A stretch of 32,350 bases of DNA from Lachnospiraceae bacterium (GCA_017463035.1 JAFTPY010000287.1:1-32350), one strand, 5' to 3'. Positions 1 to 20,364 are shown, numbered from the stretch's first letter. Program-made: numbers and translations. The notes: generated from the letters alone by a model not told the origin.

Positions 1-131
1 AAGAGACTTTCAAAATGTGGCAACCCTGTGTTCTTTGTAAAAACGCGGAAAAGAAAGCAGAAGAACCACGCCACGCCCGAGCCGCCGCGCAGAGGAGGGC
101 GGGTGGGGAGAAAATCTGCAAGAAGAAAAAA

Positions 132-163
132 CGGTTCTGACTTTTGCGGGCAGAACAGTTTTT
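132..163. terminator. Weak hairpin with flanking T/A runs; possible bidirectional terminator
   Basis: GTTCTG (134-139) pairs with CAGAAC (151-156) around an 11-nt loop. TTTTT follows on the + strand and TTTTTT follows on the - strand (rc of 125-130). The stem is only 6 bp. Confidence 0.3.
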
Positions 164-331
164 ATAAATATGCCTATTCTTTTAACCATACCTGGCCGAG
201 AACGCCTTTGATTTCGACTTCGGCGTTGTACTGTAGTTCATAGGAGCCTTGTCCGTTTTTGCTGGAGTGGCACATGACAATGCGTTTGCGCACCTTGAAG
301 TGGCATGCTGCATTTTTGGACTTTTGTATGC

Positions 332-718
332 TTACTTACGAAATTTTTCTGTTCTGATTTTATAAATCAAATACATAACCGAATGTGTCAACATCAAAAC
401 CCCGAAATATCCGGGAACCGCAAAGAAAGCATAAATAAATTGTCCGATACCGCCGAAGAACATGCCCCCGTCCGACGGAATAATCTCGAAATAGTGCAAG
501 AGAATCTGGACTGCGGAACCGATAAGGTGGTGCAGCAACAGAATCCACGGAATATATTTTTTGCGGTTTACGATGATGTAAAAAATCAAGTATACGAAGG
601 AAAGGATTCCTGCGGTGACTAAAAATCCGTCTGCGGCCTCGTGCAGGACGAAAAAACCGAGGACGATTAATACGGCATGAAACATATAGGCAATGAAAAT
701 TTGAAGTTTTGTTGTCAT
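332..718 (-). CDS. Small integral membrane protein (about 4 TM helices), function unknown
   Basis: 128-aa ORF made of strongly hydrophobic segments. A GGGGAG SD lies 7 nt upstream of the ATG. The gene starts 41 nt after the AraC gene stop on the same strand. Confidence 0.6.
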   Translation of the reverse strand: MTTKLQIFIAYMFHAVLIVLGFFVLHEAADGFLVTAGILSFVYLIFYIIVNRKKYIPWILLLHHLIGSAVQILLHYFEIIPSDGGMFFGGIGQFIYAFFAVPGYFGVLMLTHSVMYLIYKIRTEKFRK

Positions 719-759
719 TGAATTTCTCCCCTCTCTTACGGAAAACTTGAGCGTCCCGG

Positions 760-1749
760 CTATTTTTGCTGTTTGTCGCGGGTTTGGGTGACGCGTCGGT
801 TTTCTTTGTTGAATTCTTTAAATTCGGTCGGTGTACATTCTTTGAATTTTTTAAATACCCGGTTAAAGGTGGATATGCTGGCGAAGCCGGATTGCAGGGC
901 GATTTCCGTAATCGGCAGGTTCGGGTCTAACAATAACGTCTCCGCTGCCTTGATTCTTCTGGCACAGAGGTAATCGTAAAAGGCGGTGTCGGTAAACTGC
1001 CGGAACAGACGGGAAAAATGAAATTTGGAAAACCCGATTTGTGCCGCTACTTCTTCTAATGTAATATCTTCCATATAGTGGTGTTCGATATAATCAAAGA
1101 CAATATTAAACTTTTCTATGTATTCCCGTTGCTTGTTCGGCTGCATTGCGGGAAGAGAGGCGGGGATTGTGTCGTCACTGTTTCTGGCCAGCAGAACGAA
1201 AAACTGAATCAGCATGGCAAGAATGGACGGTTCGGCCAGGTCGTCGCCGTTGGCATATTCTTCAGCGATTTGTACCAGTAAGGCACGTACCTTTTCGTAG
1301 ATATCCGGCATGGTCTCCGGCGTAATCGGAGCGGAAATGGACGGGCGTGAGAATAATCGGGTAAAGCCTTTGAATTTGGTTAGGCCGGACAAATCAAACA
1401 GCAATACCAGACGATAACCGCCGGGAGGGGGAGTCAGCTCGTGCAGTTCTCCCGGAGGGATAATAAGAATCTCGTTTTCTTTCAAAAGGTATTCGTTTTT
1501 GTTTATTGTGACGGTATAGCCGTTTTGGAGCGGCATAATGATTTCTACGGTGGAGTGCCAGTGAAGAGGAAAGTTCCCCGGTTCATGGTTAATCCAGAGA
1601 AAAACGGAGGAATAGTCCTTGGAACGATGGGTTCTCTCATGGGTGCCGGCAATTTCCCTTTCGCGGAAGGATGCGTTACGCTCGCAGACCTTTTGACGTA
1701 ATTCTGCCAGATGTTCGATGTCGAAAGAAGTAGATTCAGTATTCAGCAT
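760..1749 (-). CDS. AraC family transcriptional regulator (N-terminal cupin sugar-binding domain plus C-terminal HTH)
   Basis: The cupin-like segment is HWHSTVEIIMPL...IIPPGELHEL. The C-terminal AraC HTH signature is FSKFHFSRLFRQ...ITEIALQSGFASISTFNRVFKKF. A GGAGGTG SD lies 7 nt upstream. The gene is divergent from the sugar operon. Confidence 0.9.
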   Translation of the reverse strand: MLNTESTSFDIEHLAELRQKVCERNASFREREIAGTHERTHRSKDYSSVFLWINHEPGNFPLHWHSTVEIIMPLQNGYTVTINKNEYLLKENEILIIPPGELHELTPPPGGYRLVLLFDLSGLTKFKGFTRLFSRPSISAPITPETMPDIYEKVRALLVQIAEEYANGDDLAEPSILAMLIQFFVLLARNSDDTIPASLPAMQPNKQREYIEKFNIVFDYIEHHYMEDITLEEVAAQIGFSKFHFSRLFRQFTDTAFYDYLCARRIKAAETLLLDPNLPITEIALQSGFASISTFNRVFKKFKECTPTEFKEFNKENRRVTQTRDKQQK

Positions 1750-2300
1750 AAACAGCTCACCTCCATATAATTGTTGTTAAATTTGCCTAGATTGGCATGC
1801 GGATACAACAATAAAATGCAAATACATACAATTTGTCAAAAATTGCTATTTCTATGATAGGAAAAGCAAAGGATAAAATGCATAAAAAAACTTCTGAAAA
1901 AGCGTATTTTATACTTGAAATTATACAAATATCATAATATAATTGGAGTAGGTTGTAAAGAGCCCTTTTAAAAATAGTCTGTTTCATACAGATTGCGACA
2001 TAACGGAGCAACAGATGAAAGTTCGAAAAGCAATATTTGATAAGCGCATTTTCGAAAAAAAGACTATAATGGCACTATACGCTACAAAAAAAGCTTTTTC
2101 CGATGTCGCCGTTTTTGGTGATTATGTACAAAATCGGAAACAGCACCCCTTTGGTTATTTTTTTTTGCAGAGGGAAGAAAGCCGATCCACATTTTACAAA
2201 GGCTGTGTGAACAGCCTTGATTGAGGTGTGCACCGGCTTTGGTTTGTCGTAAAGACAAATCGTTGTGCAAAGGGAATATGCACAAAGAAAGGAGAAAACT

Positions 2301-5225
2301 ATGTCAAAAGGAAAGAGAATATTCCTTACTGTAGTCGGAGTCGTGGCTGTGATTGCTGTGATTGTTGTAGTCAGCAAGCTCACCGGCGGCGACAATAACT
2401 TCAGTGAAAAGTATGAGGGAGCGAATCTCGAGACAAAGGGTGATTTCAAACGTACAGGTACATATACCGTATATTTGGAAGAGCACAAGGATTCCTCCAG
2501 ACCGCAGGGTGAAGAAATCGTGGTAGATCTTGCAAAGTACAACAAGGACAATGCAGAAAATACCGAGATTCTTACCGATTACCAGGGTGAGGCCAGCGTG
2601 CTTTACCAGGGAGACGGAGGCTATACCGAATGGCAGGTGACGATTCCGGAGGCGGGATTGTACCGTGCATATATTGAGTATTATCCGGTAGAGTCCAGAG
2701 GTGTAAGCATGGAGCGCAGCTTCTTAATTAACGGAGAGTTGCCGTTTTCCGGTTCCGATGCTTTGACGTTTACGAGACGTTGGGCAGATGCGGCTGCAGT
2801 TGTTACCGATAACCAGGGTAATGACCGTCGTCCGTCCCAGACCGAGAAGCCGGATTGGTGTTCCGCTTACTTTACGGACTATATGGGATATTATACAGAC
2901 CCGTATGAGTATTATTTCGAAGCCGGCACCAACACCATCGCATTGGATGCGGTGAACGAGCCGATGGCAATCCGTAAGATTTCCATCCGTCCGGTTGAGA
3001 AGGCATTGACTTATGAAGAGTACCTGGCAGCATGCCCGCAGGTTTCCGGCGGCGAGGATTACTTCAACGAGGTACAGGGTGAAGCGTCTACGGTACGTTC
3101 CGCACAGTCTCTGTATGCACGTTCCGACCATGCGTCCGCAAATACGGTTCCGTACAGTGTAACCCAGACGAAGTTAAACTACGGCGGCGGCGAGCAGTGG
3201 AAGGTTGCCGGTCAGTGGATGGAATGGGATATTACCGTTCCGGCAGACGGCTTCTACAACATTACCGTAAAGTCCCGTCAGTCTTATAACCGTGGCCGGG
3301 TATCCAACCGTGCGATTTACATCGACGGTGAGATTCCGTTTGAGGGATTAGGGGCTGTGGCATTCCCGTACAGCACCGACTGGATGAACATAACCCTTGC
3401 GGATGCCGAGGGCAATCCTTATGACATTTATCTGACCGCAGGTACCCATACCCTTCGTATGGAGGTTACCATGGGTGAGCTCGGTGATATTTTAAATGAG
3501 TTACAGGATTCCGTTATCCGTATGAATGATATGTATCGTACCATTCTCGTATATACCGGTGCTGTTCCGGATAAGAACCGTGACTATGACTTAGACAAGG
3601 TTTATCCGGAGGTTATGGAAGCAATGGACATCGAGTACAAGCGTTTGTACAAGACCATCGATGAGTACGTTGCATATACCGGTGAGCTTTCCGGTGATAT
3701 CGCAAATGTGCAGAAGCTGGCAAAGCAGATGGAAACCTTCATGAAGAAGCCGGAGAAGATTTCCAAGCAGTTTGCTACCTTTAAGAGTAACATCAGTTCC
3801 GTCGGTACTTCTATTATGAGCTTGGCAGAGGCACCGCTTGATATCGACCTGATTACCGTAACCGGTGTAAATGCACAGCCGAAGGAAGTTGAGACCAGCT
3901 TTTTCAAGAGTGCGGGTCACACCATTCGTTCCTTTATCGCTTCCTTTACCGTAGACTATGATGCTCTCGGTAATGTATATGAAGACGAGGAGGCAATTAC
4001 CGTTTGGATTACCACCGGTCGTGACCAGAGTAATGTATTAAAGGCTCTTGTGGATGATATTTTCACTCCGACCACCGGTATTCCGGTGAACATTAAGCTT
4101 GTACAGGGTACCGGTATGGTATTAAATGCAACCTTAGCAGGCACCGGCCCGGACATCGCAATTGAGATGGCACAGGGCGACCCGGTAAACTACGCACTTC
4201 GTAATGCAGCAGAGAAGATTAATCAGTTTGAGGGCTGGGAAGAAGTGCTTGCGGAGTATCCGGCAAGTGCAGTCGCACCGTACTGGTTCGAAGGTGATTT
4301 ATACGGTATTCCGTTGACTCATGTATACAACGTTATGTTCTATCGTAACGATATTTTAGAGGATCTCGGTGTTGAGGCTCCGGATACATGGCTTGATCTT
4401 ATCGACATGTTACCGACCTTGCAGCAGAATAACCTGGAAGTAGCGATTCCGTCCACTGAGCGTCAGATCAGCGGTACCACAAATCCGGACTTGTCCACCT
4501 TCATTGCTCTGTTGTATCAGAACGGCGGCTCTATGTATAGCGACAAGTTAACGAAGAGTACCCTTGCCAGCGAGGCAGGTGTTAAGGCTTTTGAATTGTA
4601 CACCAGCTTCTACAGCGATTACGGACTTCCGGTTGCATATGACTTTGCAAACCGTTTCCGTTCCGGTGAAATGCCGATCGGTATGCAGGACTACGATACC
4701 TACAATAACTTAGTAGTATTGGCTCCGGAAATCAGAGGTCTTTGGGAGTTTGCATTGATTCCTGGTACGGAGCAGGAGGACGGCACCATCGACCGTTCCG
4801 CTTCCTCTTGGGGCACCTCTTCCATGATACTTAAGAAGGATGACCGTTCCGAGGAAATGACCCAGAAGTGTTGGGAGTTCATGAAGTGGTGGGCGAATTC
4901 CGAGACCCAGACCAGATACGGTCGTGAGCTGGAGGCAGTTATGGGTACCGCCGCAAGATACAAGACCGCGAACAAGGTTTCCTTCGAGGAGCTTCCGTGG
5001 AGTGTAGACGAGATGACTGTCTTAAGAGAGCAGTGGTCTTGGACCGAGGAGGTTCCGGAAATCCCGGGCGGTTACTTCGTTACCCGTCACGTAACCAACG
5101 CAGCACGTAAGGTATACAACGAGAAGATGGACCCGCGTGAGACCTTGCTTGACTATGTAGACACCATTAACGACGAAATCACGAAGAAACGTGAAGAGTT
5201 TGGTTTAGCTATCGAGATAGAGTAG
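2301..5225 (+). CDS. Giant (975 aa) membrane-anchored extracellular solute-binding protein: N-terminal TM helix, two tandem CBM-like beta-sandwich repeats, a helical linker and a family-1 ABC sugar-binding domain
   Basis: I chose the ATG at 2301 (MSKGKRIFLTVVGVVAVIAVIVVV) because AAAGGAG lies 7 nt upstream; the ORF track begins at 2265. The internal duplication and the C-terminal SBP-like region (ITVWITTGRDQS...YGIPL...FYRNDIL) are visible in the translation. Confidence 0.85.
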   Translation: MSKGKRIFLTVVGVVAVIAVIVVVSKLTGGDNNFSEKYEGANLETKGDFKRTGTYTVYLEEHKDSSRPQGEEIVVDLAKYNKDNAENTEILTDYQGEASVLYQGDGGYTEWQVTIPEAGLYRAYIEYYPVESRGVSMERSFLINGELPFSGSDALTFTRRWADAAAVVTDNQGNDRRPSQTEKPDWCSAYFTDYMGYYTDPYEYYFEAGTNTIALDAVNEPMAIRKISIRPVEKALTYEEYLAACPQVSGGEDYFNEVQGEASTVRSAQSLYARSDHASANTVPYSVTQTKLNYGGGEQWKVAGQWMEWDITVPADGFYNITVKSRQSYNRGRVSNRAIYIDGEIPFEGLGAVAFPYSTDWMNITLADAEGNPYDIYLTAGTHTLRMEVTMGELGDILNELQDSVIRMNDMYRTILVYTGAVPDKNRDYDLDKVYPEVMEAMDIEYKRLYKTIDEYVAYTGELSGDIANVQKLAKQMETFMKKPEKISKQFATFKSNISSVGTSIMSLAEAPLDIDLITVTGVNAQPKEVETSFFKSAGHTIRSFIASFTVDYDALGNVYEDEEAITVWITTGRDQSNVLKALVDDIFTPTTGIPVNIKLVQGTGMVLNATLAGTGPDIAIEMAQGDPVNYALRNAAEKINQFEGWEEVLAEYPASAVAPYWFEGDLYGIPLTHVYNVMFYRNDILEDLGVEAPDTWLDLIDMLPTLQQNNLEVAIPSTERQISGTTNPDLSTFIALLYQNGGSMYSDKLTKSTLASEAGVKAFELYTSFYSDYGLPVAYDFANRFRSGEMPIGMQDYDTYNNLVVLAPEIRGLWEFALIPGTEQEDGTIDRSASSWGTSSMILKKDDRSEEMTQKCWEFMKWWANSETQTRYGRELEAVMGTAARYKTANKVSFEELPWSVDEMTVLREQWSWTEEVPEIPGGYFVTRHVTNAARKVYNEKMDPRETLLDYVDTINDEITKKREEFGLAIEIE

Positions 5226-5238
5226 AAAGGAGGATGAC

Positions 5239-6177
5239 ATGAGTAATAATACTTTATCGCTGTATTTGCGTAAGAAAAAAAGAGAAAGACAGATTATGTG
5301 GAAAAAGGCGAAGGCAAATAAGACCTGTTACCTGTTCATTCTGCCTTACTTCCTGTTGTTTTTTGTATGTTTTATCTTACCGATTGCAATGTCCCTGTTC
5401 TTAAGCTTCACTTACTTTAACGTACTGGAGGCTCCGGAATGGCGCGGCATGCAGAACTACATCAACTTAATTCTTGCCGACGACGTATTCCTTACCTCTG
5501 TAAAGAACACCTTCGTTTTGGCGGGTATTATCGGACCGGTAGGATACATTGCCTCCTTCCTGTTCGCATGGATGATTAACGAGCTGCCGCGTTATTTAAG
5601 AGCGGTTGCGGTCGTAGTATTCTACGCTCCGTCCCTTGCGGCAGGTTCTACCATGGCAATCTGGAAGATTATCTTTAACAACGACCCGTACGGTTGGATT
5701 AACTCCTTACTGCAGGTGTTCGGACAGGAGCCGGTGCTCTGGCTTTCCAATCCGGCGTATATGTTGGTTGTAGTAATCGTTGTTTCCGTTTGGTCCAGCA
5801 TGGGTGCAGGCTTCCTTGGTTTCGTAGCAGGTTTCCAGGGTATTGACCATTCTTACTACGAGGCTGCCTATGTAGACGGTTTGAAGAACCGTATGCAGGA
5901 GCTCTGGTACATCACCCTTCCGAGCATGAAGCCGATGCTTATGTTCGGTGCAATCAACTCCATTACCACCGCATTTAACGTATCCGATATTCCGGAGCAG
6001 TTGTGTGGTAACCCGAGTACGGACTATGCGGTACATACCGTTGTTACACACTTGAAGGACTATGGTAGTGTCCGCTTTGAGATGGGTTATGCATCCGCAA
6101 TCGCTACCGTTCTCTTCCTTGCAATGCTTCTTTGTCATAAGTTAGTACAGAAGATATTAATGAGAGTCGGAAATTAA
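5239..6177 (+). CDS. Carbohydrate ABC transporter permease (MalF/CUT1 type)
   Basis: Six hydrophobic segments and an EAA-like loop (YEAAYVDGLKNRMQELWYITLPSMKP). A strong AAGGAGG SD is present. The gene is adjacent to the SBP gene. Confidence 0.9.
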   Translation: MSNNTLSLYLRKKKRERQIMWKKAKANKTCYLFILPYFLLFFVCFILPIAMSLFLSFTYFNVLEAPEWRGMQNYINLILADDVFLTSVKNTFVLAGIIGPVGYIASFLFAWMINELPRYLRAVAVVVFYAPSLAAGSTMAIWKIIFNNDPYGWINSLLQVFGQEPVLWLSNPAYMLVVVIVVSVWSSMGAGFLGFVAGFQGIDHSYYEAAYVDGLKNRMQELWYITLPSMKPMLMFGAINSITTAFNVSDIPEQLCGNPSTDYAVHTVVTHLKDYGSVRFEMGYASAIATVLFLAMLLCHKLVQKILMRVGN

Positions 6178-6239
6178 TTTTACGGCGACCATACAATGAA
6201 GCATGCAGAGTTCTGTAAATAAAGAAAAGGAGAGAAGCG

Positions 6240-7103
6240 ATGAAAAAATTTAAATTAAAGCATAGAAAACCGGGCCGTTCCCGTGGCGGCGACCTCGGCG
6301 TATACATCATTTTGTTAATGTTCGGCTTTATGTTTGCGATTCCGCTTGTAATGCAGGTGTGTCAGGCATTTAAGCCGTTGGATGAACTTTTTAAGTTCCC
6401 GCAGACCATTTTGGTTCGAAACCCTACGTTAAACAACTTTAAGGACCTGTTTGTAATTATGGGTCAGTCCTGGGTACCGTTTTCCAGATACATATTCAAT
6501 ACTGTATTTATTACAGCAATCGGTACCGCAGGTCAGCTCTTAATCGCATCCATGGGTGCGTATGTACTTGCAAAGTATGACTTCCCAGGCGGAAGAAAGC
6601 TGTTCGCGATGATTACAACAGCCATGATGTTTAACAACTACGTTACAGCAATTCCGCTTTACCTTGTTATGGCAAAGTGCGGATGGCTGGATACCTTTAT
6701 TGCACCGATTCTTCCGGCACTGGCAGCTCCGATGGGTCTCTTCCTTATGAAGCAGTTCATGGAAGGTATTCCGGATTCCCTGCTTGAGGCAGCGAAAATC
6801 GACGGTGCAAAGGAATGGGGTATCTTTACGAAGATTGTCATGCCGAACGTTAAGCCGGCATGGTTGACCCTTATTATTTTCTCGGTACAGAGTCTTTGGA
6901 ACAATGCGCAGTCTACCTACATTTTCTCCGAGGAATTAAAGACTCTTCCGTATGCTCTCGGTCAGGTTACCGCAGGTGGTGTAGCCCGTGCGGGTGCAGG
7001 TGCAGCGGTTGGTTTGTTCATGATGATTGTACCGATCGGTATCTTCATTTTCTCCGAGAGTAACATCTTAGAGACGATGGCTAGTTCGGGTATTAAGGAA
7101 TAG
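6240..7103 (+). CDS. Carbohydrate ABC transporter permease (MalG/CUT1 type)
   Basis: EAA loop LLEAAKIDGAKEWGIFTKIVMPNVKP in a multi-TM protein, with an AAAGGAGAG SD. Confidence 0.9.
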   Translation: MKKFKLKHRKPGRSRGGDLGVYIILLMFGFMFAIPLVMQVCQAFKPLDELFKFPQTILVRNPTLNNFKDLFVIMGQSWVPFSRYIFNTVFITAIGTAGQLLIASMGAYVLAKYDFPGGRKLFAMITTAMMFNNYVTAIPLYLVMAKCGWLDTFIAPILPALAAPMGLFLMKQFMEGIPDSLLEAAKIDGAKEWGIFTKIVMPNVKPAWLTLIIFSVQSLWNNAQSTYIFSEELKTLPYALGQVTAGGVARAGAGAAVGLFMMIVPIGIFIFSESNILETMASSGIKE

Positions 7104-7115
7104 GAGGAGAGAATT

Positions 7116-8654
7116 ATGAAGCTTAAAAGAAAATTTGCGGCAGCTCTCCTTGCGGTAGCGACAATCGTCGCTGTATGCCCGGCAGGAGTTGCGAATGCAA
7201 CGGAAGTAAACAGTTATACCTATAATTACGATTACTGGGGATTGGAGTACGAATCTCCGGATGCGTACCGTCCGGTATCCTATACCGACGGTGCAGCTCT
7301 CGGTATTACGGCTTTGAAGGCTCCGAAGAGTATGTTCACCCGCGACAACAGCCTCTATATTGTAGACAGCGGTAACAATCGTATTCTTGAGCTTTTGGTG
7401 GAAGACACAGGTCTTTCCGTTGTAAGAGAGATTACCGGGTTCACCGGTGAGACGAAGGTGTTAAACGGCGAAGAGCCGGTGCTTACCTTCAATGCTCCGC
7501 AGGATATTTACGTTGCGGAAAACGGTGATATGTACATCACCGACCAGGCAAACTACAGAATCCTTCATTTGGATAAGGATTGTAACCTGATTAAAGAAAT
7601 GTTAAAGCCGGACAGCCCGCTTTTAGATCCGGAGAATCCGTTCGAACCGAATAAGATTGTAGTTGACCGTTCGGGACGTATGTTCGTTCTTGCAAAGAAC
7701 GTCAACAAGGGTGTTATGCAGTTCGAGGAGGAAGGTAATTTCGTGGGCTTTATCGGTGCAAGTGAGGTTGTCTTCAGCATGGCGGACATGATTAAGAAGA
7801 CCTTCTCCACCAAGGCACAGAGAGATCAGATGATTGACTTTGTACCGACGGAGTACAACAACCTCTACATTGACAATAAGTCCTTTATCTACTGTACCAC
7901 CGAAGTGTTCGAGGAAGCTGATTTGGATGCGGGAACCGCAAAGCCGATTCGTAGGTTAAATTCCCTCGGCGGAGATATTCTTATCCGTAACGGTGAGATG
8001 CCTCCTTGCGGTGACTGGCAGTGGGGTGATGCGGCAGGTATGAGCGGTGCGTCCAGAATCGTGGATATTACCGCAATGGATGACGAGACCTACTACGTTG
8101 TAGACCGTGTCCGCGGCCGTTTGTTCGGTTATGATGAGCAGGGACATCTGCTTTACGCCTTCGGCGGTCCGGGTAACCAGCTCGGTTACTTCACCTATCC
8201 GATTGCAATCGAGCATGTGGGAACCGACCTTTATGTACTGGATACCGTCACCGGCGGTATTACCAGATTCGCCAGAACCGAGTTCGGTGATTTGATTCAC
8301 AGCGCTTTGGATGAGTATGATGTAGGTAACTACGAAGGCTCCGCAGAGTACTGGGAAGAGGTACTTGCCATGAACGGTAACTACGAGCTGGCATACATCG
8401 GTATCGGACGTTCCTATCTTCGTCAGCAGGATTACAAGACCGCAATGGAATACTTTGAGGTTATGCGTGACGATGATAACTACTCCCGTGCATGGAAGTA
8501 TTATCGTAAGGACTGGATTGAAAACAACCTTGGTTATGTAATTATAGTACTTGTGGTACTCGGTTTCATTCCGGTTATTGTAAAGAAAATCAAAAAAATC
8601 AGATGGGAGGCGAAGGAGCAGTATGAGTATGAATCTGAAAGCAAAAATAAATAA
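7116..8654 (+). CDS. Secreted NHL-repeat beta-propeller protein with a TPR-like segment, a C-terminal TM anchor and a short K/E-rich cytoplasmic tail
   Basis: The signal peptide is MKLKRKFAAALLAVATIVAVCPAGVANA. NHL-like blades recur (LYIVDSGNNRILEL, MYITDQANYRILHL, YYVVDRVRGRLFGY, LYVLDTVTGGITRF). A TPR-like segment is YEGSAEYWEEVLAMNGNYELAYIGIGRSYLRQQDYKTAMEYF. The TM helix is LGYVIIVLVVLGFIPVIV. A TAGGAGGAG SD is present. Confidence 0.75.
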   Translation: MKLKRKFAAALLAVATIVAVCPAGVANATEVNSYTYNYDYWGLEYESPDAYRPVSYTDGAALGITALKAPKSMFTRDNSLYIVDSGNNRILELLVEDTGLSVVREITGFTGETKVLNGEEPVLTFNAPQDIYVAENGDMYITDQANYRILHLDKDCNLIKEMLKPDSPLLDPENPFEPNKIVVDRSGRMFVLAKNVNKGVMQFEEEGNFVGFIGASEVVFSMADMIKKTFSTKAQRDQMIDFVPTEYNNLYIDNKSFIYCTTEVFEEADLDAGTAKPIRRLNSLGGDILIRNGEMPPCGDWQWGDAAGMSGASRIVDITAMDDETYYVVDRVRGRLFGYDEQGHLLYAFGGPGNQLGYFTYPIAIEHVGTDLYVLDTVTGGITRFARTEFGDLIHSALDEYDVGNYEGSAEYWEEVLAMNGNYELAYIGIGRSYLRQQDYKTAMEYFEVMRDDDNYSRAWKYYRKDWIENNLGYVIIVLVVLGFIPVIVKKIKKIRWEAKEQYEYESESKNK

Positions 8655-9291
8655 GTCTGCTTGGACGAGATACAAAGAGTCTCTCAAGTATGCGCTGTAT
8701 ATTATGACTCACCCGTTTGATGGCTTTTGGGATTTGACCCACGAAAAGAGAGGTTCCATGGCAGCGGCAAATACACTGCTTATCCTGACGTTCCTGACAA
8801 ATCTCTGGGCAATGCGTTTTACGAACTTTATGTTCAATGATGTGCGTTGGGAACGTGTCAATATCTGGTCTCAGGTAGCAGGTATTCTGGCACCGCTTCT
8901 TCTCTACGTTGTGGCAAACTGGTGTCTTACCACGTTGTTCGACGGTAAGGGACGTATGAAGGATGTATATATGGGTATGTGTTACTCCCTTACACCATAT
9001 ATTCTTATTACGAATCCGATTACGATTATCAGTAATTTCGTGACAATGGAGGAAGGTGCATTCCTTGCTTACTTTGATTATTTGGCACTTGGCTGGGCAT
9101 TCTGTCTGATTCTCATTTCCGTAATGCAGATTCATGACTACTCCCTTGGTAAGGCTATTATGGCAATTTTATTCTCTGCTGTGGGAATGATGATTATTGT
9201 ATTCTTGGTAATGCTGTTCTTCAGCTTGGTAAGTGATGCGATTGCATTCTTCATCTCCATCGGTAAAGAGATATTGTTGCGTGTGTACTAA
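8623..9291 (+). CDS. Yip1-domain-like multipass membrane protein (about 5 TM)
   Basis: Soluble N-terminus (YALYIMTHPFDGFWDLTHEKRGS) followed by five hydrophobic helices. An AAGGAG SD lies 5 nt upstream. The gene overlaps the preceding gene by 32 nt. The Yip1 assignment is from recollection of the family architecture and is not verified. Confidence 0.7.
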   Translation: MSMNLKAKINKSAWTRYKESLKYALYIMTHPFDGFWDLTHEKRGSMAAANTLLILTFLTNLWAMRFTNFMFNDVRWERVNIWSQVAGILAPLLLYVVANWCLTTLFDGKGRMKDVYMGMCYSLTPYILITNPITIISNFVTMEEGAFLAYFDYLALGWAFCLILISVMQIHDYSLGKAIMAILFSAVGMMIIVFLVMLFFSLVSDAIAFFISIGKEILLRVY

Positions 9292-9310
9292 GCGAAAGGA
9301 GGAAGTTTAA

Positions 9311-11878
9311 GTGAAAAAGTTAGCTAAATTACTGTTGTTCCTTCTTTTTGCCGGTGTACTTTCCGCTTGTAATGCAGAGGAAGTCGAGGAAGAAATCGAG
9401 GTTCGTTACTACAATGCAGCGGATTATGAAGGAATGGAATTTAAAATGGAGAGCGATGACCTGCTCTTCGAGTTAGACAAGGATACGACGCAGTTTACCG
9501 TGAAGCAGAAGTCTACCGGTAAGGTTTGGTATTCCAACCCGGCGGAAGCGGCTTCCGATCCGATTGCGGATGCATCCAGTAAGCGTTTGTTACAGTCTAT
9601 TTTGGCAATTGAGTATTCTAATGTAAACGAGTTGCTGGTGAATCTGAATACCTTTGAGCACAGTGCAAATATCGAGCATGCGGGCGGAATGGGTATTTAT
9701 ACTCTTGAGCAGCCGGATGCCAACACCATTAAGGTGAATTACACCATCGGTAAGGTCGCTAGAACCTTTATTATCCCGCCGTCCGTGCCGGATGCGCGTT
9801 TTATGGAGTGGTATGATAAGCTGGACAGAAGCATCCAGAAAAAGCTGGACAGAGTTTATCGTAAGATTGATATCAACAATTTGTTGGCAACGGATGATAA
9901 GAGTGAGCTTTTGGCGAAGTATCCGGACTTAGAGACGACCTGTGTATGGGAGATTCGTACTTCTGCTAAGGATCATCAGAAGGAAGAGTTGCAGGAAGCA
10001 TTTGCAGCAATCGGATATACCAAGGAAGAGTACGAGAAGGATTTAGAGTACTATTCGTTGTCCGACGACAATGAAAAGCCGCTTTACAATATTTCCGTCG
10101 TATATCGTTTGGATGGGGATAAGTTAACTGTTGAGGTTCCGTTTGATGAAATCGAGTACAAGAAGGATTATCCGATTACCGATTTGACCCTTCTTCCGTA
10201 CTTCGGAGCAGGCAGTGCAACGGAAGAAGGCTTCTTGTTTGTTCCGGAAGGTTCCGGTGCAATCATCAACTTCAATAACGGTAAGACCAATCTTTCCGCA
10301 TACTATGCACAGCTCTACGGTTGGGATTACGGCTTAAAGCGTGACGTAGTCATTAATGAGACGAGAGCGGCGTTCCCGGTATTCGGTATTTCCCATGCCG
10401 ACGGTGCTATGCTGGGTATTGTAGATGAGTACAGTACACTTGCAACCATTCAGGCAGACGTTGCCGGAAGAAGACATAGCTACAATTTCGCATATGCGAG
10501 TTATGAAATGGTTCACGGCAGTAAGATGGACGTTTCCGCAAAGAGTGACCAGTCCATTATTTCTTACGAAAAGAAATTACCGGAAGGTGCAATCAGTCAG
10601 AGCTATCTTTTCTTAGACGGTGAGCACAATACATATACCGATATGGCGAAAGCCTACAGAGAAGATTTACTGGCAAAGTATCCGGAGCTTCAGAAGAGCG
10701 AGAATGCAAATGCTCCGATTTCCGTAGAAGTGATTGCGGCAATCGACAGAGTAAAGCAGGTTCTCGGTATGCCGGTAACACTTCCGGAAGTATTAACCGA
10801 TTTTGAGGATGCTAAGGCATTGATTACCGATATGGCAGCAGAAGGATATTCGAATTTGTCCCTGCGTTATGTGGGTTGGATGAACGGCGGTATTAACCAC
10901 TCCCTTCCGAAGGATATCGACATCACCAGCGGAATGGGCGGTAAGAAGGGCTTGACGGATTTAGTTTCCGCTACCGACAGTCTCGGCGTAGATTTATATC
11001 TCACCGGACGCACCCAGAATGTATATGACAGCGGCTTGATGGACGGATTTATGAAGTCCCGCGATGTTGCGAAGTACATCAGCCGTGAAGTGGTTGATAT
11101 TCCGGAGTTCTCCAAGATTTGGTTCTCTGATATTAATGAAAGCCGTTTGGAGCATCACTTCCTGCTCAGACCGAGCGTATGCGTCACCTTAATGCAGAGC
11201 ATTGCGGATTATGCAAAGGAATCCGGCGCAGGCGTAGGCTATGAAGACACCGGTTATTTATTAAGCGGTGACTACAATCAGAAGAGAAGCACTACCAGAG
11301 AAGCATCCATGGATATGCAGACCGCAAAGCTTGCCGAGGTGAAGGCAGCAGGAACCAAGGTTGCAATGACCGGCGGTAACGAGTATGTGCTTCCGTACGC
11401 AGACTTGTTAACCCAGGTTGATTTGTACGGTAAGGATAACCTGATTTTCGATGAAAAGGTTCCGTTCTACGAAATCGCAATTCACGGTCTGGTAGATTAC
11501 ACCGGAAATGCGGTAAACTTAAGCGGCGACGCATGGAATACCGTATTGAAGGCAGCAGAGACCGGTGCGGGCCTTACGTTTACCTTCTATTCCGAGCCGG
11601 CCAGCCTGATGCAGGGTACCGAGTACATGGATTACTTCGGTGCGAACTATGACGGCTGGAAGGATAAGGCAAAGGAATACGCAACCCGTTATGAGAAGGA
11701 AATGGCAGGTTTAAACAACCAGTTCATTACCGAGCATCGTATCCTTGCGGACGGTGTTACCGCAACGGTTTATGAGGATAATACGGTTGTATATGTAAAT
11801 ACCACGGTATTTGAGTATACGGATGAGAACGTAACGATTCCGGCTAGAGAGTATCTGGTAGAAAGGAGTGAGAAGTAA
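9311..11878 (+). CDS. 855-aa lipoprotein of unknown function (possibly the DUF5696 family)
   Basis: GTG start with an AAGGAGG SD. The lipobox is LLFAGVLSAC. There is no recognisable catalytic motif. I recall proteins of this size and context being annotated DUF5696; this is unverified. Confidence 0.7.
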   Translation: MKKLAKLLLFLLFAGVLSACNAEEVEEEIEVRYYNAADYEGMEFKMESDDLLFELDKDTTQFTVKQKSTGKVWYSNPAEAASDPIADASSKRLLQSILAIEYSNVNELLVNLNTFEHSANIEHAGGMGIYTLEQPDANTIKVNYTIGKVARTFIIPPSVPDARFMEWYDKLDRSIQKKLDRVYRKIDINNLLATDDKSELLAKYPDLETTCVWEIRTSAKDHQKEELQEAFAAIGYTKEEYEKDLEYYSLSDDNEKPLYNISVVYRLDGDKLTVEVPFDEIEYKKDYPITDLTLLPYFGAGSATEEGFLFVPEGSGAIINFNNGKTNLSAYYAQLYGWDYGLKRDVVINETRAAFPVFGISHADGAMLGIVDEYSTLATIQADVAGRRHSYNFAYASYEMVHGSKMDVSAKSDQSIISYEKKLPEGAISQSYLFLDGEHNTYTDMAKAYREDLLAKYPELQKSENANAPISVEVIAAIDRVKQVLGMPVTLPEVLTDFEDAKALITDMAAEGYSNLSLRYVGWMNGGINHSLPKDIDITSGMGGKKGLTDLVSATDSLGVDLYLTGRTQNVYDSGLMDGFMKSRDVAKYISREVVDIPEFSKIWFSDINESRLEHHFLLRPSVCVTLMQSIADYAKESGAGVGYEDTGYLLSGDYNQKRSTTREASMDMQTAKLAEVKAAGTKVAMTGGNEYVLPYADLLTQVDLYGKDNLIFDEKVPFYEIAIHGLVDYTGNAVNLSGDAWNTVLKAAETGAGLTFTFYSEPASLMQGTEYMDYFGANYDGWKDKAKEYATRYEKEMAGLNNQFITEHRILADGVTATVYEDNTVVYVNTTVFEYTDENVTIPAREYLVERSEK

Positions 11879-12811
11879 GTGGCGAAACATAAGAAGCAAA
11901 GAAATTTGCGCAGACGAAACGCAATTACGGGGTATTTCTTCATCTCTCCGTTTATCATCGGCTTTCTGGTATTTCTTTTAAAACCGATGATTGAATCCTT
12001 CCGTATGAGTTTCTGTAACGTATTGATTGCAGCAGGTCAGCAGGAAGGCGGTAAAGGTTTCATTTTGGAGCCGATTAAGACTTGGAAAGACTCCAACTAT
12101 TACAGAGCCTTTTTATATGACCCATACTTTAAGGATCGTTTGGTTGACTCTTTAAAGGAGATGGCAATTCAGGTTCCGGCAATTCTTGTGTTCAGTTTCT
12201 TTATTGCATTAATTCTGAACCAGGAATTCAAGGGCAGAGGCTTCGTAAGAGCTATCTTCTTCCTGCCGGTAATTCTTTCCTCCGGTGTTATTGTAGGTCT
12301 TGAGTACAACAACTCTTTGATGTCCGGTATGCAGGATGTCATTAAGGAGGCAGGTAACGGTATTAACATTACCGCAACATTGGAGACAATTTTAAAAACA
12401 ACCGGTCTGGGAGGTAAAATCCTGGACCCGGTATTTAAAATAATCGAAGCGGTATATGATGTGGCGCTGGCGTCCGGTATTCAGATTGTTATCTTTATTT
12501 CCGGCTTACAGACAGTGTCCACCAGTATGTACGAAGCAGCTAAGATTGAGGGCTGTACGGCATGGGAGAGTTTCTGGAAGATTACGTTCCCTCTTGTAAG
12601 TTCCATGATACTCGTAAATTTAGTTTACACTACGGTTGACTTCCTTATGAGAACAGATAATCAAGCCATGGTTTCGATTACCGAAAAGGTTAACCCGCAG
12701 ATGGAATATGGTCTCAGTGCCGCAATGGCATGGAGTTATTTCGGAATTGTTGCGGCAGTGCTCGGTATTCTGACCGCCATCATTTCAAAGAAGGTGTACT
12801 ATTATGAGTAA
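11879..12811 (+). CDS. Carbohydrate ABC transporter permease (MalF type), second system
   Basis: The GTG start directly abuts the upstream stop (TAAGTG). The N-terminus ITGYFFISPFIIGFLVFLLKPM is typical, and the EAA loop is YEAAKIEGCTAWESFWKITFPLV. Confidence 0.85.
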   Translation: MAKHKKQRNLRRRNAITGYFFISPFIIGFLVFLLKPMIESFRMSFCNVLIAAGQQEGGKGFILEPIKTWKDSNYYRAFLYDPYFKDRLVDSLKEMAIQVPAILVFSFFIALILNQEFKGRGFVRAIFFLPVILSSGVIVGLEYNNSLMSGMQDVIKEAGNGINITATLETILKTTGLGGKILDPVFKIIEAVYDVALASGIQIVIFISGLQTVSTSMYEAAKIEGCTAWESFWKITFPLVSSMILVNLVYTTVDFLMRTDNQAMVSITEKVNPQMEYGLSAAMAWSYFGIVAAVLGILTAIISKKVYYYE

Positions 12812-13805
12812 AAAAGTGAAAATTGCAAAGAGACATGATTTTTGGGAGAGAAACAGAAAGACGAACGGATATCTTCTTCAGAAGAAAATCGGTGATGTTG
12901 CATTCCGTTTCGTTCGCGCAGTGCTACTGTTCGGCCTGTGTTTCCTGATTCTCCAGCCGATTTTAAACAAGGTTTCCGTCAGCTTTATGGAGGAAGCCAA
13001 CTTATACGATGCAACGGTAATTAATATTCCGCGTGATTGGACGTTAGTTAACTATAGAATGGTACACGAGTTAATCAACTACTGGAAGTGCTTGTTCAAT
13101 TCCGTGTGGGTATCCTTTGTAGTTGCATTTTTACAGGTGGCTGCTGCTACCTTGGTAGGTTACGGTTTTGCAAGATTTAAGTTTCCGCTCAAGAACTTCT
13201 GGTTCGGTTGCGTTATTTTGTTAATCATTGTACCGCCGCAGACCATCATGAGCCCGTTGTACTTAAACTTCCGTTACTTTGATATTTTCGGTATTTTCAC
13301 GGCTATCTTCGGTGAGCCGCTGAACTTACAGAAGACCATGGCACCGTATCTTATGATGTGTGCTACCTGTATGGGTCTTAAGAGCGGTTTGTACATCTTT
13401 ATGCTTCGTCAGTATTTCCGCGGTGTACCGAAGGAATTAGAGGAAGCGGCATATGTAGACGGTTGCGGTAACTTCCAGACTTTCTTACGGATTATGCTTC
13501 CGGATGCAAAGTCCATGATCGTATCCTGTTTCCTGTTTGCATATGTATGGCAGTGGACCGACTCCTTCTATTCCAAGATGTTCCTCGGTAACATGGAACT
13601 CTTGCCGAAGGGACTCAACTCCATTGCAGGACGTATCGATAACTTTGTTAAGACAAACGGATACGGTACGAAGGCCAGCCAGGGTCTGTTAAATCAGATG
13701 ATTTCTACGGGTACTTTGATGGCAATTATTCCGCTTTTGATCCTTTATCTGTTCGCTCAGAAGGCATTTGTGGAGAGTTTAAGCCAGACCGGTATAAAAA
13801 TGTAA
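12804..13805 (+). CDS. Carbohydrate ABC transporter permease (MalG type), second system
   Basis: 8-nt overlap with the previous gene. The EAA loop is LEEAAYVDGCGNFQTFLRIMLPDAK in a multi-TM protein. Confidence 0.85.
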   Translation: MSKKVKIAKRHDFWERNRKTNGYLLQKKIGDVAFRFVRAVLLFGLCFLILQPILNKVSVSFMEEANLYDATVINIPRDWTLVNYRMVHELINYWKCLFNSVWVSFVVAFLQVAAATLVGYGFARFKFPLKNFWFGCVILLIIVPPQTIMSPLYLNFRYFDIFGIFTAIFGEPLNLQKTMAPYLMMCATCMGLKSGLYIFMLRQYFRGVPKELEEAAYVDGCGNFQTFLRIMLPDAKSMIVSCFLFAYVWQWTDSFYSKMFLGNMELLPKGLNSIAGRIDNFVKTNGYGTKASQGLLNQMISTGTLMAIIPLLILYLFAQKAFVESLSQTGIKM

Positions 13806-13858
13806 CAAAAAAATTCAAAAATCCAAAAAAAAAGCTAGCATTTTGTTACAAAATGCGG

Positions 13859-13864
13859 TATAAT
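13859..13864 (+). promoter_or_regulatory. Candidate internal -10 element (TATAAT) ahead of the second SBP gene
   Basis: A perfect TATAAT sits in the 173-bp A-rich gap after the permease gene. There is no good -35 hexamer. Confidence 0.3.
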
Positions 13865-13978
13865 GTCATTGGAAGTAATTCGATAGTGGCGCAGATGCGT
13901 TTGCTATAGAAAAGAGGAGCGACGATTTGATCGTCAGATGGGACGCCAAACCCAAAAATTAAAAGGAGGAATTTTGGT

Positions 13979-15421
13979 ATGAGAATTAAGAAGTATGCTG
14001 CAGCTTTCCTTGCTGCAACGACCGTTCTTGGTAGCCTTGCTGCTTGTGGCAACGGCGAGACCCCGGCAGTTGTTGATCCGACTGCTACCCCGAGTGCAGG
14101 AGAGGAGAAGCCGGGAGATGATAAGCCGACCGCTACCCCGACTCCGGCTACGACCCCGATCCCGGACAGAGATCTCGGTGGTATGGAAATTATCATCGGT
14201 GACCACTGGTCTCCGGAAGTTCCGGCTGATCCGACCAATGCTCAGGAAGAAGCTACCGCAAAGTATCGTCAGGAAATCTTCGAAAAGTACAACTTCAAGA
14301 TGCAGTCTAAGACTGTAGCTGGTTGGGGCGAGATGACCGACCTTTGTGTAAACTCCATCACTGCTGGTGAGCCGGCTGCTCAGTTGTTCGAGCTTGACTA
14401 CAGATTCGTAGCTAAGCCGATGCAGAACGGTCTTTTCTATGACCTTGCTACTCTTGATGAGCTTGACTTCTCCGAGGATAAGTGGAGCGTAGCAGTTAAG
14501 GATCTTATGACCAAGGGCGACAGCATCTACGGTATGAGAGCAGCTAAGTCTGAGCCGCGTGGTGGCTTGATTTGGAACAAGAGACTCTTCGAAGAGGCTG
14601 GTCTTGATCCGGATCTTCCGTATGACTTACAGGCAAGCGGCGACTGGACCTGGTCCAAGTTCGACGAGCTTTGTGCTAAGTTAACCCGCGATACCAACAA
14701 CGACGGTGTTACCGATATTTACGCTACCGTTTCTCAGGGCGCAGCAACCATGGGTTGTTTAGTTGCTTCTACCGGTGAGGACTACTTCGGTAAGGATGAG
14801 AACGGTAACCTTACCAATAACATGGGCTCCAAGGCAGTTCTTGATGCACTCAACTTCTGCGTAGAGCTTTACAACAAGGGTTACGAGATGCCGACGCCGG
14901 AAGGCGCTAACTGGGACTGGTTCTATGCAGCATTCCAGGAAGGTAAGGCAGCTATGACCTTCAACGAAGAGTATACCTGTCAGCCGGGCCAGACCTACGG
15001 TGACGCTATGGAAGATCCGGTTGGTTTCGTAATGCCGCCGAAGCCGGACGGACAGGAAGGTTATCATTCCTATGTATGTGATAACATCACCATCATCCCG
15101 TCCTGCTACGATGCAGAGACCGCTGGTAACATTGCATTCGCATACAATGTATACACCATGGCTACTCCGGGTTATGATGACCCGAACGACTGGAAGGAGA
15201 CCTACTACTCTCACTTCAACGATGAGAGAGCAGTTGATGAGACCATCGTTATGTTCAACGACGGCGTAAGCGCTCACTTCCTCAACCAGACCCTTATTTC
15301 TACCGACCTTGGTCCGGACCTTCTTTGGGTATATCCGTTCGCAAACGTTACCCCGGCTGACCAGGTTGCAGCAATCAAGGATTCTTGGGATGCAATCGTT
15401 GCTGAGGCAAATGGACAGTAA
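13979..15421 (+). CDS. ABC transporter extracellular solute-binding lipoprotein (family 1, sugar)
   Basis: The lipobox is VLGSLAACGNG. A Pro/Thr-rich linker (TPSAGEEKPGDDKPTATPTPATTPIP) precedes the SBP-like body. A strong AAAGGAGG SD is present. Confidence 0.9.
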   Translation: MRIKKYAAAFLAATTVLGSLAACGNGETPAVVDPTATPSAGEEKPGDDKPTATPTPATTPIPDRDLGGMEIIIGDHWSPEVPADPTNAQEEATAKYRQEIFEKYNFKMQSKTVAGWGEMTDLCVNSITAGEPAAQLFELDYRFVAKPMQNGLFYDLATLDELDFSEDKWSVAVKDLMTKGDSIYGMRAAKSEPRGGLIWNKRLFEEAGLDPDLPYDLQASGDWTWSKFDELCAKLTRDTNNDGVTDIYATVSQGAATMGCLVASTGEDYFGKDENGNLTNNMGSKAVLDALNFCVELYNKGYEMPTPEGANWDWFYAAFQEGKAAMTFNEEYTCQPGQTYGDAMEDPVGFVMPPKPDGQEGYHSYVCDNITIIPSCYDAETAGNIAFAYNVYTMATPGYDDPNDWKETYYSHFNDERAVDETIVMFNDGVSAHFLNQTLISTDLGPDLLWVYPFANVTPADQVAAIKDSWDAIVAEANGQ

Positions 15422-15442
15422 TTTATTTTAACATAGGTTTTT

Positions 15443-15473
15443 ACATAAGGGGTGGCTTGCCTGCCCCTTATGT
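15443..15473 (+). promoter_or_regulatory. Intercistronic stem-loop (10-bp stem, 11-nt loop) without a T-run
   Basis: ACATAAGGGG (15443-15452) pairs perfectly with CCCCTTATGT (15464-15473). It lies 22 nt after the SBP stop. It may stabilise the transcript 3' end or act as a partial terminator. Confidence 0.4.
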
Positions 15474-15517
15474 GTTACCTAAAAACAGGTGGGAGAGATT
15501 GGAAAGGAGTGTTGTGT

Positions 15518-16903: not shown

Positions 16904-16932
16904 TGAACAGAATAGTAATAAGATAAGGATGT

Positions 16933-16981
16933 CGGGGCTGAATTTTGAAATATTCATTTTCAGAGTTCAGTCCCGGCTTTT
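16933..16981 (+). terminator. Candidate rho-independent terminator after the GH10-like gene
   Basis: CGGGGCTGAA pairs with TTCAGTCCCG (10 bp including one G-U pair). The stem is followed by GC and TTTT. Confidence 0.45.
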
Positions 16982-17076
16982 ACGTAAGAGAGTGTACAGA
17001 TGATAGATAGAATCATTGGAAAGGAAAGTTAAATCTAAAATTAATTTTGAAAAAGATGACGGAAAGGGGTACAAAA

Positions 17077-19230: not shown

Positions 19231-19244
19231 AATAGCATAATAAG

Positions 19245-19286
19245 AAACGGGCTGTTGCATCGCCGGATGCACAGCCCGTTTTTTTC
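19245..19286. terminator. Rho-independent terminator shared by convergent GH3 (+) and mecA (-) genes
   Basis: AAACGGGCTGTTGCATC pairs with GATGCACAGCCCGTTT around a GCCG loop. TTTTTTT follows on the + strand. Confidence 0.75.
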
Positions 19287-19344
19287 GATGACTATCAAAA
19301 CGGATAAACACAAGTAAAATCCGCTGATTAATAAAAGTTAAATC

Positions 19345-20079: not shown

Positions 20080-20110
20080 GTGTATGCACCCCCTTCTTCG
20101 TGTTATACAA

Positions 20111-20139
20111 AGTATATAGTAATTTTCAACGAAAGTCAA
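20111..20139 (-). promoter_or_regulatory. Candidate sigma-A promoter for mecA
   Basis: On the - strand the element reads TTGACT, a 17-nt spacer, then TATACT. The -10 element lies about 30 nt upstream of the start codon. Confidence 0.45.
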
Positions 20140-20254
20140 TAACATAAATTGTGAAGTTTGTATAAAGAAGGTAAGGAAAAATGCGGGTTTAATTTTAGTA
20201 ATACTATACGAAAAATCGAAGGAAAGTTTGTGGAAATTGCGAAGAGAAAAATGC

Positions 20255-20284: not shown

Positions 20285-20364
20285 AAATGCAGGTGAGAAA
20301 ATCACCGGCAATCCGACAACGAAAAGGACAAATCAGTGTGCGTAAGGCATACAGAAAGGAGAAG

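Follow-up and report, generated by a model that had tools for sequence, protein, structure and literature searches.

Why should a bacterial operon carry, between two pairs of importer permeases, three genes that have no place in a canonical ATP-binding cassette (ABC) importer? The question is raised by a stretch of 32,350 nt from a Lachnospiraceae bacterium (GCA_017463035.1, JAFTPY010000287.1, positions 1–32350; hereafter, this whole stretch is called the window), in which eight genes of the + strand occupy positions 2301–13805. They encode a giant solute-binding protein (SBP1), the permeases P1a and P1b, a protein with NHL and TPR domains, a Yip1-family membrane protein, a large lipoprotein of the family DUF5696, and the permeases P2a and P2b; a gene for a second solute-binding protein (SBP2) follows. 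Our reading, which we hold with just under even confidence, is that the operon is a copy of a conserved nine-gene cassette for the capture, cleavage and import of glycans, in which two CUT1-type importers without an ATPase gene, namely SBP1 with P1a/P1b and P2a/P2b with SBP2, are arranged around the NHL-TPR/Yip1 pair and the DUF5696 protein.

The open reading frame (ORF) listing and the Pfam and NCBIfam scans reproduced the coordinates, strand and spacing of the eight genes reported in the first-pass annotation of this DNA. The genes follow each other head to tail with intergenic distances of 13, 62, 12, −32, 19, 0 and −8 nt, the ATG of SBP1 at position 2301 is preceded by the ribosome-binding site AAAGGAG, and a scan of the + strand between 2301 and 13805 found no convincing terminator, as had been stated. 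All of the earlier gene assignments are backed by Pfam (SBP_bac_8, BPD_transp_1, NHL, TPR, Yip1, and DUF5696). The extent given for the operon was only partly right: the eight genes are real, but the unit continues past 13805 through the lipoprotein SBP2 (13979–15421, +; SBP_bac_1, E = 8e-17; lipobox LAAC) and a lipoprotein resembling glycoside hydrolase (GH) family 10 enzymes (15518–16903, +; Glyco_hydro_10, E = 3.5e-34; lipobox FAGC) to a hairpin at 16931–16977 (+), which has a 20-bp stem followed by TTTT, is the strongest terminator-like site in positions 1–20000, and is likely the operon's end.

To describe the conservation of this arrangement, one genome per GTDB species was scanned with two peptide patterns derived from the DUF5696 alignment, and a relative was confirmed at 494 places. 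The best 80 of these 494, in which DUF5696 is 39–94% identical to the window protein, are referred to below as close loci; they belong mostly to Lachnospiraceae, with some labelled Oscillospiraceae, Vallitaleaceae, Clostridia or Bacillota. The first-pass annotation had suggested similar neighbourhoods in Paenibacillus and Clostridia; every match that carries a name comes from Lachnospiraceae or from other Clostridia. Searches of the nine window proteins against every ORF of these loci recovered the order SBP1-P1a-P1b-NHL-Yip1-DUF5696-P2a-P2b-SBP2 in 80 out of 80 cases: 53 loci are complete, 26 are cut by a contig end and consistent with the order, and one is complete with an extra permease gene downstream. 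SBP2 stands behind P2b in every close locus long enough to show it. Seven DUF5696 representatives about 25–30% identical to the window protein provided distant contexts, and all seven display the same arrangement as far as the contig reaches, usually including a solute-binding protein gene after the second permease pair; the giant solute-binding proteins of these contexts have 963–1114 residues, and their DUF5696 proteins up to 2431.

This arrangement is far beyond chance. Its occurrence in 80/80 close and 7/7 distant loci amounts to strict co-conservation of the three middle genes with the two pairs of permeases, which was one of the tests that the first-pass annotation had set for its own proposal. 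The notion that these genes came by chance, or as a selfish element, to lie between two ABC operons unrelated to each other, and that they are functionally unlinked to them, can draw on the odd gene content and on nothing else; it is refuted by an order kept down to about 25% identity, and the tight or overlapping junctions and the absence of mobile-element genes also speak against it, leaving it a practically negligible probability. An exhaustive profile search, with the matches clustered at 50% identity, yielded 5,851 DUF5696 clusters at E ≤ 1e-3 and 3,493 at E ≤ 1e-30. Among the loci, divergence is fastest in the extracellular parts (median identity of 42% for DUF5696 and 45% for SBP2) and slowest in the permeases (56–66%), which is the pattern expected if the surface parts set specificity, and the cassette looks like a general platform with changing specificity. 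Two distant loci carry DUF5696 giants of 2431 and 1622 residues (L087:10001-17296 and L089:10001-14869) with large extra regions in the usual cassette position; both loci also have a first permease pair whose second member measures about 590 residues.

The DUF5696 lipoprotein (9311–11878, +; 855 residues; lipobox LSAC) matches PF18952 over its full length, with 605.8 bits against a cut-off of 25.6, profile positions 2–612 of 612, and E = 1.2e-181. A search of a literature library for DUF5696 and PF18952 gave no paper, in line with the earlier remark that the system is unstudied, and no link to this family was found in the literature on GH101, GH129 and GHL proteins. A profile of 26 DUF5696 sequences matched ZgGH129 (DagB) in the PDB with E = 4e-11 over two short stretches, and the GH129 enzyme NagBb weakly (E = 0.12). 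With the AlphaFold2 model of the window protein (pLDDT 78, pTM 0.77), Foldseek retrieved ZgGH129 (5opq, E = 4.9e-31), NagBb (5wzn, 6e-22) and GH101 (1.5e-14), followed by GH36, GH97, GH31 and GH13 enzymes; the target-normalised TM-scores for 5opq and 5wzn were 0.66–0.69 (0.67 for ZgGH129), with 12–14% identity in the structural alignments. The predicted domains, an N-terminal beta-sandwich, a TIM barrel and a C-terminal beta-sandwich, make up the GH129 fold; the order beta-sandwich, TIM barrel and C-terminal beta domain has been described for DagB (PMC5698469), a 3,6-anhydro-D-galactosidase (PDB 5opq) termed GH129-like by its authors (PMC5698469). The statement that this lipoprotein has no recognisable catalytic motif thus no longer holds at the level of the fold, which is GH129/GH101-like.

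The DUF5696 protein shares this three-part fold with GH101 and with GH129, represented by the alpha-N-acetylgalactosaminidase NagBb (5wzn) and by ZgGH129 (5opq), but it lacks significant sequence similarity to the characterised GH129 members beyond the values given above and does not conserve the acid/base residue of ZgGH129. It is also longer by about 200 residues, among them a helical insertion and a loop modelled with low confidence (567–618), and, unlike these enzymes, it is a lipoprotein with a set place in an ABC cassette, here in a xylan context. DUF5696 is best seen as a glycosidase-like family of its own, so far uncharacterised, that is related to GH129 and GH101 and belongs to neither.

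Residue conservation was counted over 140 family representatives with 25–48% identity. Asp654 is kept in 135 of them, Arg663 in 138, Asp714 in 130, Glu750 in 133, Asn690 in 121 and His725 in 116. In the AlphaFold2 secondary structure, the loops that follow the predicted strands 4 and 6 of the barrel carry Asp654 and Asp714, which is where we infer the nucleophile and the acid/base residue of retaining alpha-glycosidases of such a fold usually to be found. Judging from conservation and the model, Asp654 and Asp714 are likely the catalytic pair, and the DUF5696 protein is a probable new surface glycosidase. The two aspartates are 60 residues apart, a spacing that we take to be closer to the GH36/GH31 pattern. 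Two other candidates were rejected. Asp646 ends predicted strand 4 and is invariant in the 26 close homologues, but only 54 of the 140 wider representatives have it, which makes it clade-specific and Asp654 the better nucleophile candidate; Glu691, in the motif GGNEY, was considered as the acid/base residue and occupies a position that varies across the family. No compensatory pattern was seen among positions 646, 687 and 691, and a search with a barrel sub-profile for the region of Asp486 of ZgGH129 gave chance matches only (imidazoleglycerol-phosphate dehydratase and prefoldin).

These residue patterns also bear on whether the DUF5696 protein is an enzyme at all, since it could instead, like SusE/F, be a surface lipoprotein that binds glycans or has a structural function and has merely retained a glycosidase-like fold, with depolymerisation carried out by GH10 or GH11 enzymes or by neighbouring organisms. 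The lack of conservation at the ZgGH129 acid/base position, the variable residue 691 and the clade-specific Asp646 would fit such a role, and the adjacent GH10-like protein has lost its own acid/base glutamate, which means that drift of surface enzymes to binding does happen in this locus. Nevertheless, Asp654, Asp714, Arg663, Asn690 and His725 are strongly kept throughout the divergent family, and each is placed at the C-terminal end of a predicted barrel strand or behind it, in the region that forms the active site of TIM-barrel glycosidases; a pure binder would rarely retain such a set of residues. We therefore consider a non-catalytic DUF5696 protein unlikely and prefer to regard it as an enzyme.

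Between the first permease pair and DUF5696 lie the genes of the NHL/TPR protein (7116–8654, +) and the Yip1-family protein (8623–9291, +), which overlap by up to 32 nt. The NHL/TPR protein has matches to the Pfam families NHL (30 bits versus a cut-off of 20) and TPR, a predicted signal peptide and a C-terminal transmembrane helix; its AlphaFold2 model (pLDDT 77.5) consists of a six-bladed propeller, approximately four TPR-like helices and a long C-terminal helix. Generic NHL domains head the Foldseek matches of this model with target-normalised TM-scores of 0.72–0.77 and outrank all enzyme matches listed, so a specific enzyme identity of the propeller, such as a lactonase or a lyase, was rejected. 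The Yip1 protein is a polytopic member of PF04893 (42.6 bits versus a cut-off of 28.6, E = 7.5e-11), and a hydropathy scan showed four clear membrane segments for the window protein, against five for its fused homologues. The predicted topology of the three middle proteins (signal peptide and transmembrane helix of NHL, polytopic Yip1, and lipobox LSAC of DUF5696) agrees with the earlier placement of all three at the outer face of the membrane.

Two distant cassettes encode NHL and Yip1 as a single polypeptide (L086:4458-6536, 692 residues; L088:7839-9950, 703 residues), whose halves align end to end with the window proteins, with E-values of about 1e-97 for NHL and 1e-46 to 1e-54 for Yip1, the latter being the C-terminal half. 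Such Rosetta-stone evidence argues that the two window proteins form one membrane complex. The first-pass annotation had proposed a complex for glycan capture or processing at the cell surface; its processing part gains support from the DUF5696 fold and from the modules of SBP1 described below, but a physical complex is supported for NHL and Yip1 only.

The fusions are also compatible with another role for this pair, which might help the translocators to assemble or remain stable, gate them, or modulate transport as a surface sensor, with DUF5696 acting independently. The only studied bacterial Yip1-family protein, YknW, is an ABC transporter accessory subunit, the fourth subunit of the YknWXYZ transporter of Bacillus (PMC4887032); in addition, fusions of NHL to Yip1 exist while a fusion to DUF5696 was never seen, and TPR and propeller domains are typical protein-interaction modules. 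As in the YknW case, where the protein acts with its transporter, the cassette encodes a bacterial Yip1-domain membrane protein together with an ABC transporter. However, YknYZ is a MacB-type exporter working with a membrane-fusion protein and is unrelated to type I sugar importers, which are the partners in the cassette, and the cassette Yip1 has an extracellular NHL propeller coupled, and in some cases fused, to it. DUF5696 invariably stands between Yip1 and P2a, with gaps of 0–19 nt, which suggests a joint role, and no cytoplasmic signalling domain is present, so that we assign a low probability to this explanation and favour a scaffold that includes the enzyme. The same literature search returned nothing relevant on Yip1 with xylan or NHL, or on a YIP1 family protein with ABC transporters. 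In six loci (L023, L036, L057, L066, L078 and L081), genes for an HlyD/YknX-like membrane-fusion protein and an FtsX-type permease, resembling MacB-like efflux systems, often lie just downstream of the cassette; their presence deserves mention given the YknW-type partnership, and they may be mere neighbours.

The components on either side of this module are those of sugar importers. SBP1 (2301–5225, +; 974 residues) has a single predicted N-terminal transmembrane segment at residues 7–25 that would serve as an anchor. Its only part belonging to a solute-binding protein family is the CUT1-type SBP_bac_8 domain at residues 600–885 (counted on an ORF of 986 residues), and this C-terminal part is an ordinary sugar-binding protein with Lin1841 (5ysb, E = 2.7e-20) as its best PDB match. 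The N-terminal 560 residues hold an internal repeat (106–217 versus 304–389, E = 5e-12), both copies of which give weak signals of carbohydrate-binding module (CBM) families 35 and 6, a CBM35 entry of the PDB (2w47) among them with E = 0.007; precomputed CBM_35 and CBM_6 matches exist for SBP1 homologues. The stretch between these two CBM6/35-like modules and the SBP_bac_8 domain was predicted by eye to be a helical linker.

All four permeases match BPD_transp_1: P1a (5239–6177, +; MalF/UgpA-like, with GlcT/UgpA-like NCBIfam matches) with E = 2.2e-15, P1b (6240–7103, +; MalG/UgpE-like) with E = 8.4e-16, P2a (11879–12811, +), which starts right after the DUF5696 stop codon, with E = 3.9e-5, and P2b (12804–13805, +), which overlaps P2a by 8 nt, with E = 4.5e-13. 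The P2a match is under the curated cut-off (23.9 versus 26.4 bits), and its identity as a permease is backed by NCBIfam matches and the EAA motif. The EAA-G coupling loop occurs in each of the four proteins (at residue 183 in P1b, 219 in P2a and 214 in P2b), so the two permease subunits of a CUT1/type I importer are present twice over. Extracellular solute-binding proteins are likewise encoded, with SBP_bac_8 in SBP1, SBP_bac_1 in SBP2 and sugar-binding proteins as the PDB matches of both; the best match for SBP2 is an arabino-oligosaccharide-binding protein (6rjy, E = 1.2e-8). P1a and P2a are 22% identical, P1b and P2b 23%, and BLAST found no similarity between the SBP domains of SBP1 and SBP2; a recent duplication as the source of the two importers was rejected on these grounds: their permease pairs are old paralogues, and the importers themselves are old and distinct. 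No ABC ATPase gene (ABC_tran) was found in the window, nor next to any cassette with Pfam annotation. Firmicutes usually rely on a shared ATPase of the MsmK/MsmX type whose gene lies elsewhere.

What the importers of this organism would take up is indicated by the genes next to the cassette. The ORFs flanking the 80 close loci were clustered and the cluster representatives annotated. GH10 proteins were counted in the flanks of at most 43 loci, an upper bound because the single-linkage cluster also took in a GDSL esterase, and a GH10 gene stands behind the cassette in about half of the close loci. GH43 proteins of the beta-xylosidase type were found in 28 loci, GH3 in 23 (downstream of the cassette in 22 and upstream in one), GH115 in five and GH8 in four; CBM4_9 proteins, GH127 and GDSL esterases also occur. 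In Clostridium sp. KNHs205, for instance, the cassette is followed by GH10, GH43, GDSL esterase and GH8 genes, and in Anaerocolumna cellulosilytica, it lies between a GH43 gene on one side and GH43-CBM6 and GH127 genes on the other. Because of these flanking carbohydrate-active enzymes (CAZymes), the clade of the window is tied to arabino- or glucurono-xylan, and oligosaccharides of these xylans are the most likely substrate in the window organism. An initial guess at xylan fits the flanking GH10, GH43, GH3, GH8, GH115 and GH127 genes. The best PDB matches of SBP2, given above, and of the GH3 protein, given below, point to the same kind of substrate. Directly downstream of the cassette in 17 loci of the Acetatifactor type (L047:9665-10612 and 16 others), often behind a GH43 gene, there is also a family of proteins of about 316 residues without a Pfam match, encoded mostly as tandem pairs.

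In the window itself, the GH10-like lipoprotein reads WEILDN in place of WDVVNE, which puts an asparagine at the position of the acid/base glutamate, and the nucleophile glutamate is kept (FTEFN, for the TELD of GH10 xylanases); the catalytic pair of a GH10 xylanase is thus incomplete. The closest relatives have WDILDD or WDVLEE in this motif, and more distant loci have the canonical form. As far as these motifs tell, the window protein might bind xylan without any activity of its own, or it might be an enzyme that has changed. Behind the terminator-like hairpin lies a gene for a GH3 protein without a signal peptide (17047–19230, +; Glyco_hydro_3, Glyco_hydro_3_C and Fn3-like domains), whose best PDB matches are beta-xylosidases with E-values of about 1e-107. 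Together with a regulator of the AraC family, two ABC importers and the GH-like DUF5696 protein, the GH10-like and GH3 genes give the locus the content of a Gram-positive polysaccharide utilisation locus (gpPUL).

The distant cassettes adjoin GH31, GH116, GH172, rhamnosidase-like or amino-sugar genes, or no glycosidase at all. This variety raises the possibility that the cassette serves to recycle, remodel or export the glycans of the cell's own envelope rather than to take up polysaccharides from the diet; the cassette of L089 has no adjoining catabolic glycosidase, and that of L090 stands beside acetyltransferase, amidohydrolase and hexapeptide-transferase genes. Such a role appears very improbable, considering that BPD_transp_1 permeases with EAA loops and extracellular solute-binding proteins define importers and that most loci are flanked by catabolic glycosidases and a sugar regulator of the AraC type.

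Under the reading that we prefer, that of a capture, cleavage and import cassette, one could propose the following sequence of events. The membrane-tethered SBP1 would hold a plant-wall glycan at the cell surface through its two CBM6/35-like modules, and the DUF5696 lipoprotein, probably with the Asp654/Asp714 pair, would cleave or debranch it. Two classes of products might then enter through the two importers, energised by a shared MsmK-type ATPase encoded elsewhere, while the NHL-TPR/Yip1 complex would be the membrane scaffold by which the enzyme stays joined to the two translocators. The imported sugars would be finished in the cytoplasm by GH3 and GH43 enzymes, and the divergently encoded AraC regulator (760–1749) could control the operon.

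Several points weigh against this reading. The CBM matches of SBP1 are below the Pfam cut-offs (CBM_35, E = 0.0015; CBM_6, E = 0.012), the NHL propeller has no specific structural match in Foldseek, and the fusion evidence for contact covers NHL and Yip1 and extends to neither DUF5696 nor the permeases. The acid/base residue Glu517 of ZgGH129 aligns with the variable DUF5696 residue 687, and with the first-choice nucleophile Asp646 set aside, the catalytic assignment is based solely on conservation and predicted secondary structure. The substrates of GH129 and GH101 enzymes are alpha-N-acetylgalactosamine or anhydro-galactose, not xylan, and the neighbourhoods of the distant cassettes confine the xylan link to the clade of the window. 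A gap of 173 nt precedes SBP2 and one of 96 nt, containing a hairpin, precedes the GH10-like gene, so that a single transcript can only be presumed. More generally, any activity, binding, co-transcription or interaction of the components is a prediction from sequences and models.

Compared with known systems, the locus is closest to gpPULs. The xylan locus of Roseburia intestinalis, treated by Sheridan 2016 and Leth 2018, reportedly consists of a regulator, a solute-binding protein, two permeases and GH43, GH3, GH8 and GH115 enzymes, with a surface GH10. Shared with such loci are a co-localised regulator, a CUT1 importer without its own ATPase, surface CBM proteins, intracellular exo-glycosidases and, in the cassette flanks, the same xylan CAZyme families. 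The cassette differs in having two importers in a fixed order, a membrane-anchored SBP1 of twice the usual size with CBMs of its own, and NHL-TPR, Yip1 and DUF5696 as three additional genes that never vary. New relative to the described gpPULs are therefore the fixed double importer, the giant CBM-bearing anchored solute-binding protein, the NHL-Yip1 module and the invariant GH129-like protein. The likeness to the SusCDEFG system of Bacteroidota is one of logic only, since both encode side by side the means to bind glycans at the surface, an enzyme acting there and a transporter devoted to the task, with a specificity that can be exchanged between loci; there is no homology, and Sus is an outer-membrane, TonB-dependent system, while the cassette would mediate ABC import across the cytoplasmic membrane.

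There is a fair chance that the cassette is a distinct type of multi-protein machine. A bolder and rather doubtful proposal is that it represents a new class of Gram-positive import machine, in which an NHL/Yip1 scaffold couples two translocators, a CBM-bearing tethered solute-binding protein and the founding member of a new GH family, so that cleavage and the import of both products take place in one assembly; this would be the Firmicute equivalent of the Sus complex of Bacteroidota, put to use for many different glycans. Lachnospiraceae are major fibre degraders and butyrate producers of the gut and rumen, and their capture and import of complex glycans are far less understood than those of Bacteroides. 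With 494 confirmed DUF5696 places and about 5,850 family clusters, the cassette is common and widespread. Should the model be true, it would add a new glycoside hydrolase family, provide the first nutrient-uptake role for bacterial Yip1 and NHL proteins, explain the giant CBM-bearing binding proteins, and offer a genomic marker for predicting glycan use in Firmicutes. The presence of the cassette in cultured bacteria (Clostridium sp. KNHs205, Anaerocolumna cellulosilytica, Anaerocolumna sp. AGMB13025 and Anaerotaenia torta DSM 100431) makes the model directly testable.

Upstream of the operon and divergent from it, the AraC-family regulator (760–1749, −) is identified by Pfam matches to HTH_18, HTH_AraC and AraC_binding. 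Of the 80 close loci, 35 have a homologue immediately before the cassette, almost always in divergent orientation. The best promoter-like site in the scan (1915–1943, +; TTGAAA, 17 nt, TATAAT), identified only by its match to the consensus at 11 of 12 positions, lies about 350 nt upstream of the first gene, which would give a 5′ untranslated region of about 350 nt if transcription begins near it. Just upstream of this site, the direct repeat ATAAAATGCA is found at 1811–1829 and 1873–1891 with a spacing of 62 nt, and is a candidate operator for the divergent regulator. Rfam and tRNA searches gave no match in or upstream of the operon.

Two features were noted in the spacers of the downstream part of the unit. 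The spacer upstream of SBP2 (13806–13978) contains a lone TATAAT at 13859–13864, a possible internal promoter, and its folding was not meaningfully better than that of shuffled sequence (z = −1.8). Between the SBP2 stop and the GH10 start, positions 15442–15474 form a perfect 14-bp hairpin without a T-run, which could be a transcript-stabilising or partial-termination element.

Downstream of the GH3 gene, positions 19345–25552 carry housekeeping or sporulation-type genes for MecA (−), a Ser/Thr kinase, a GH18 protein with Cu_amine_oxidN1, Amidase_3 and Sua5/TsaC, and beyond 25552 follow RpiB, rubrerythrin, a major facilitator superfamily transporter and the start of an F0F1 ATPase operon. No mobile-element genes were found among the genes downstream of the locus in the window; their absence and the housekeeping neighbours indicate that the cassette belongs to the core of the chromosome rather than to an island. 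A full-length TwoAYGGAY RNA (RF01731; 93 bits, with the gathering score at 43) lies at 26085–26250 (−), flanked by the rpiB-like gene and a HicB-like gene; this motif has no known function and is unrelated to the operon.

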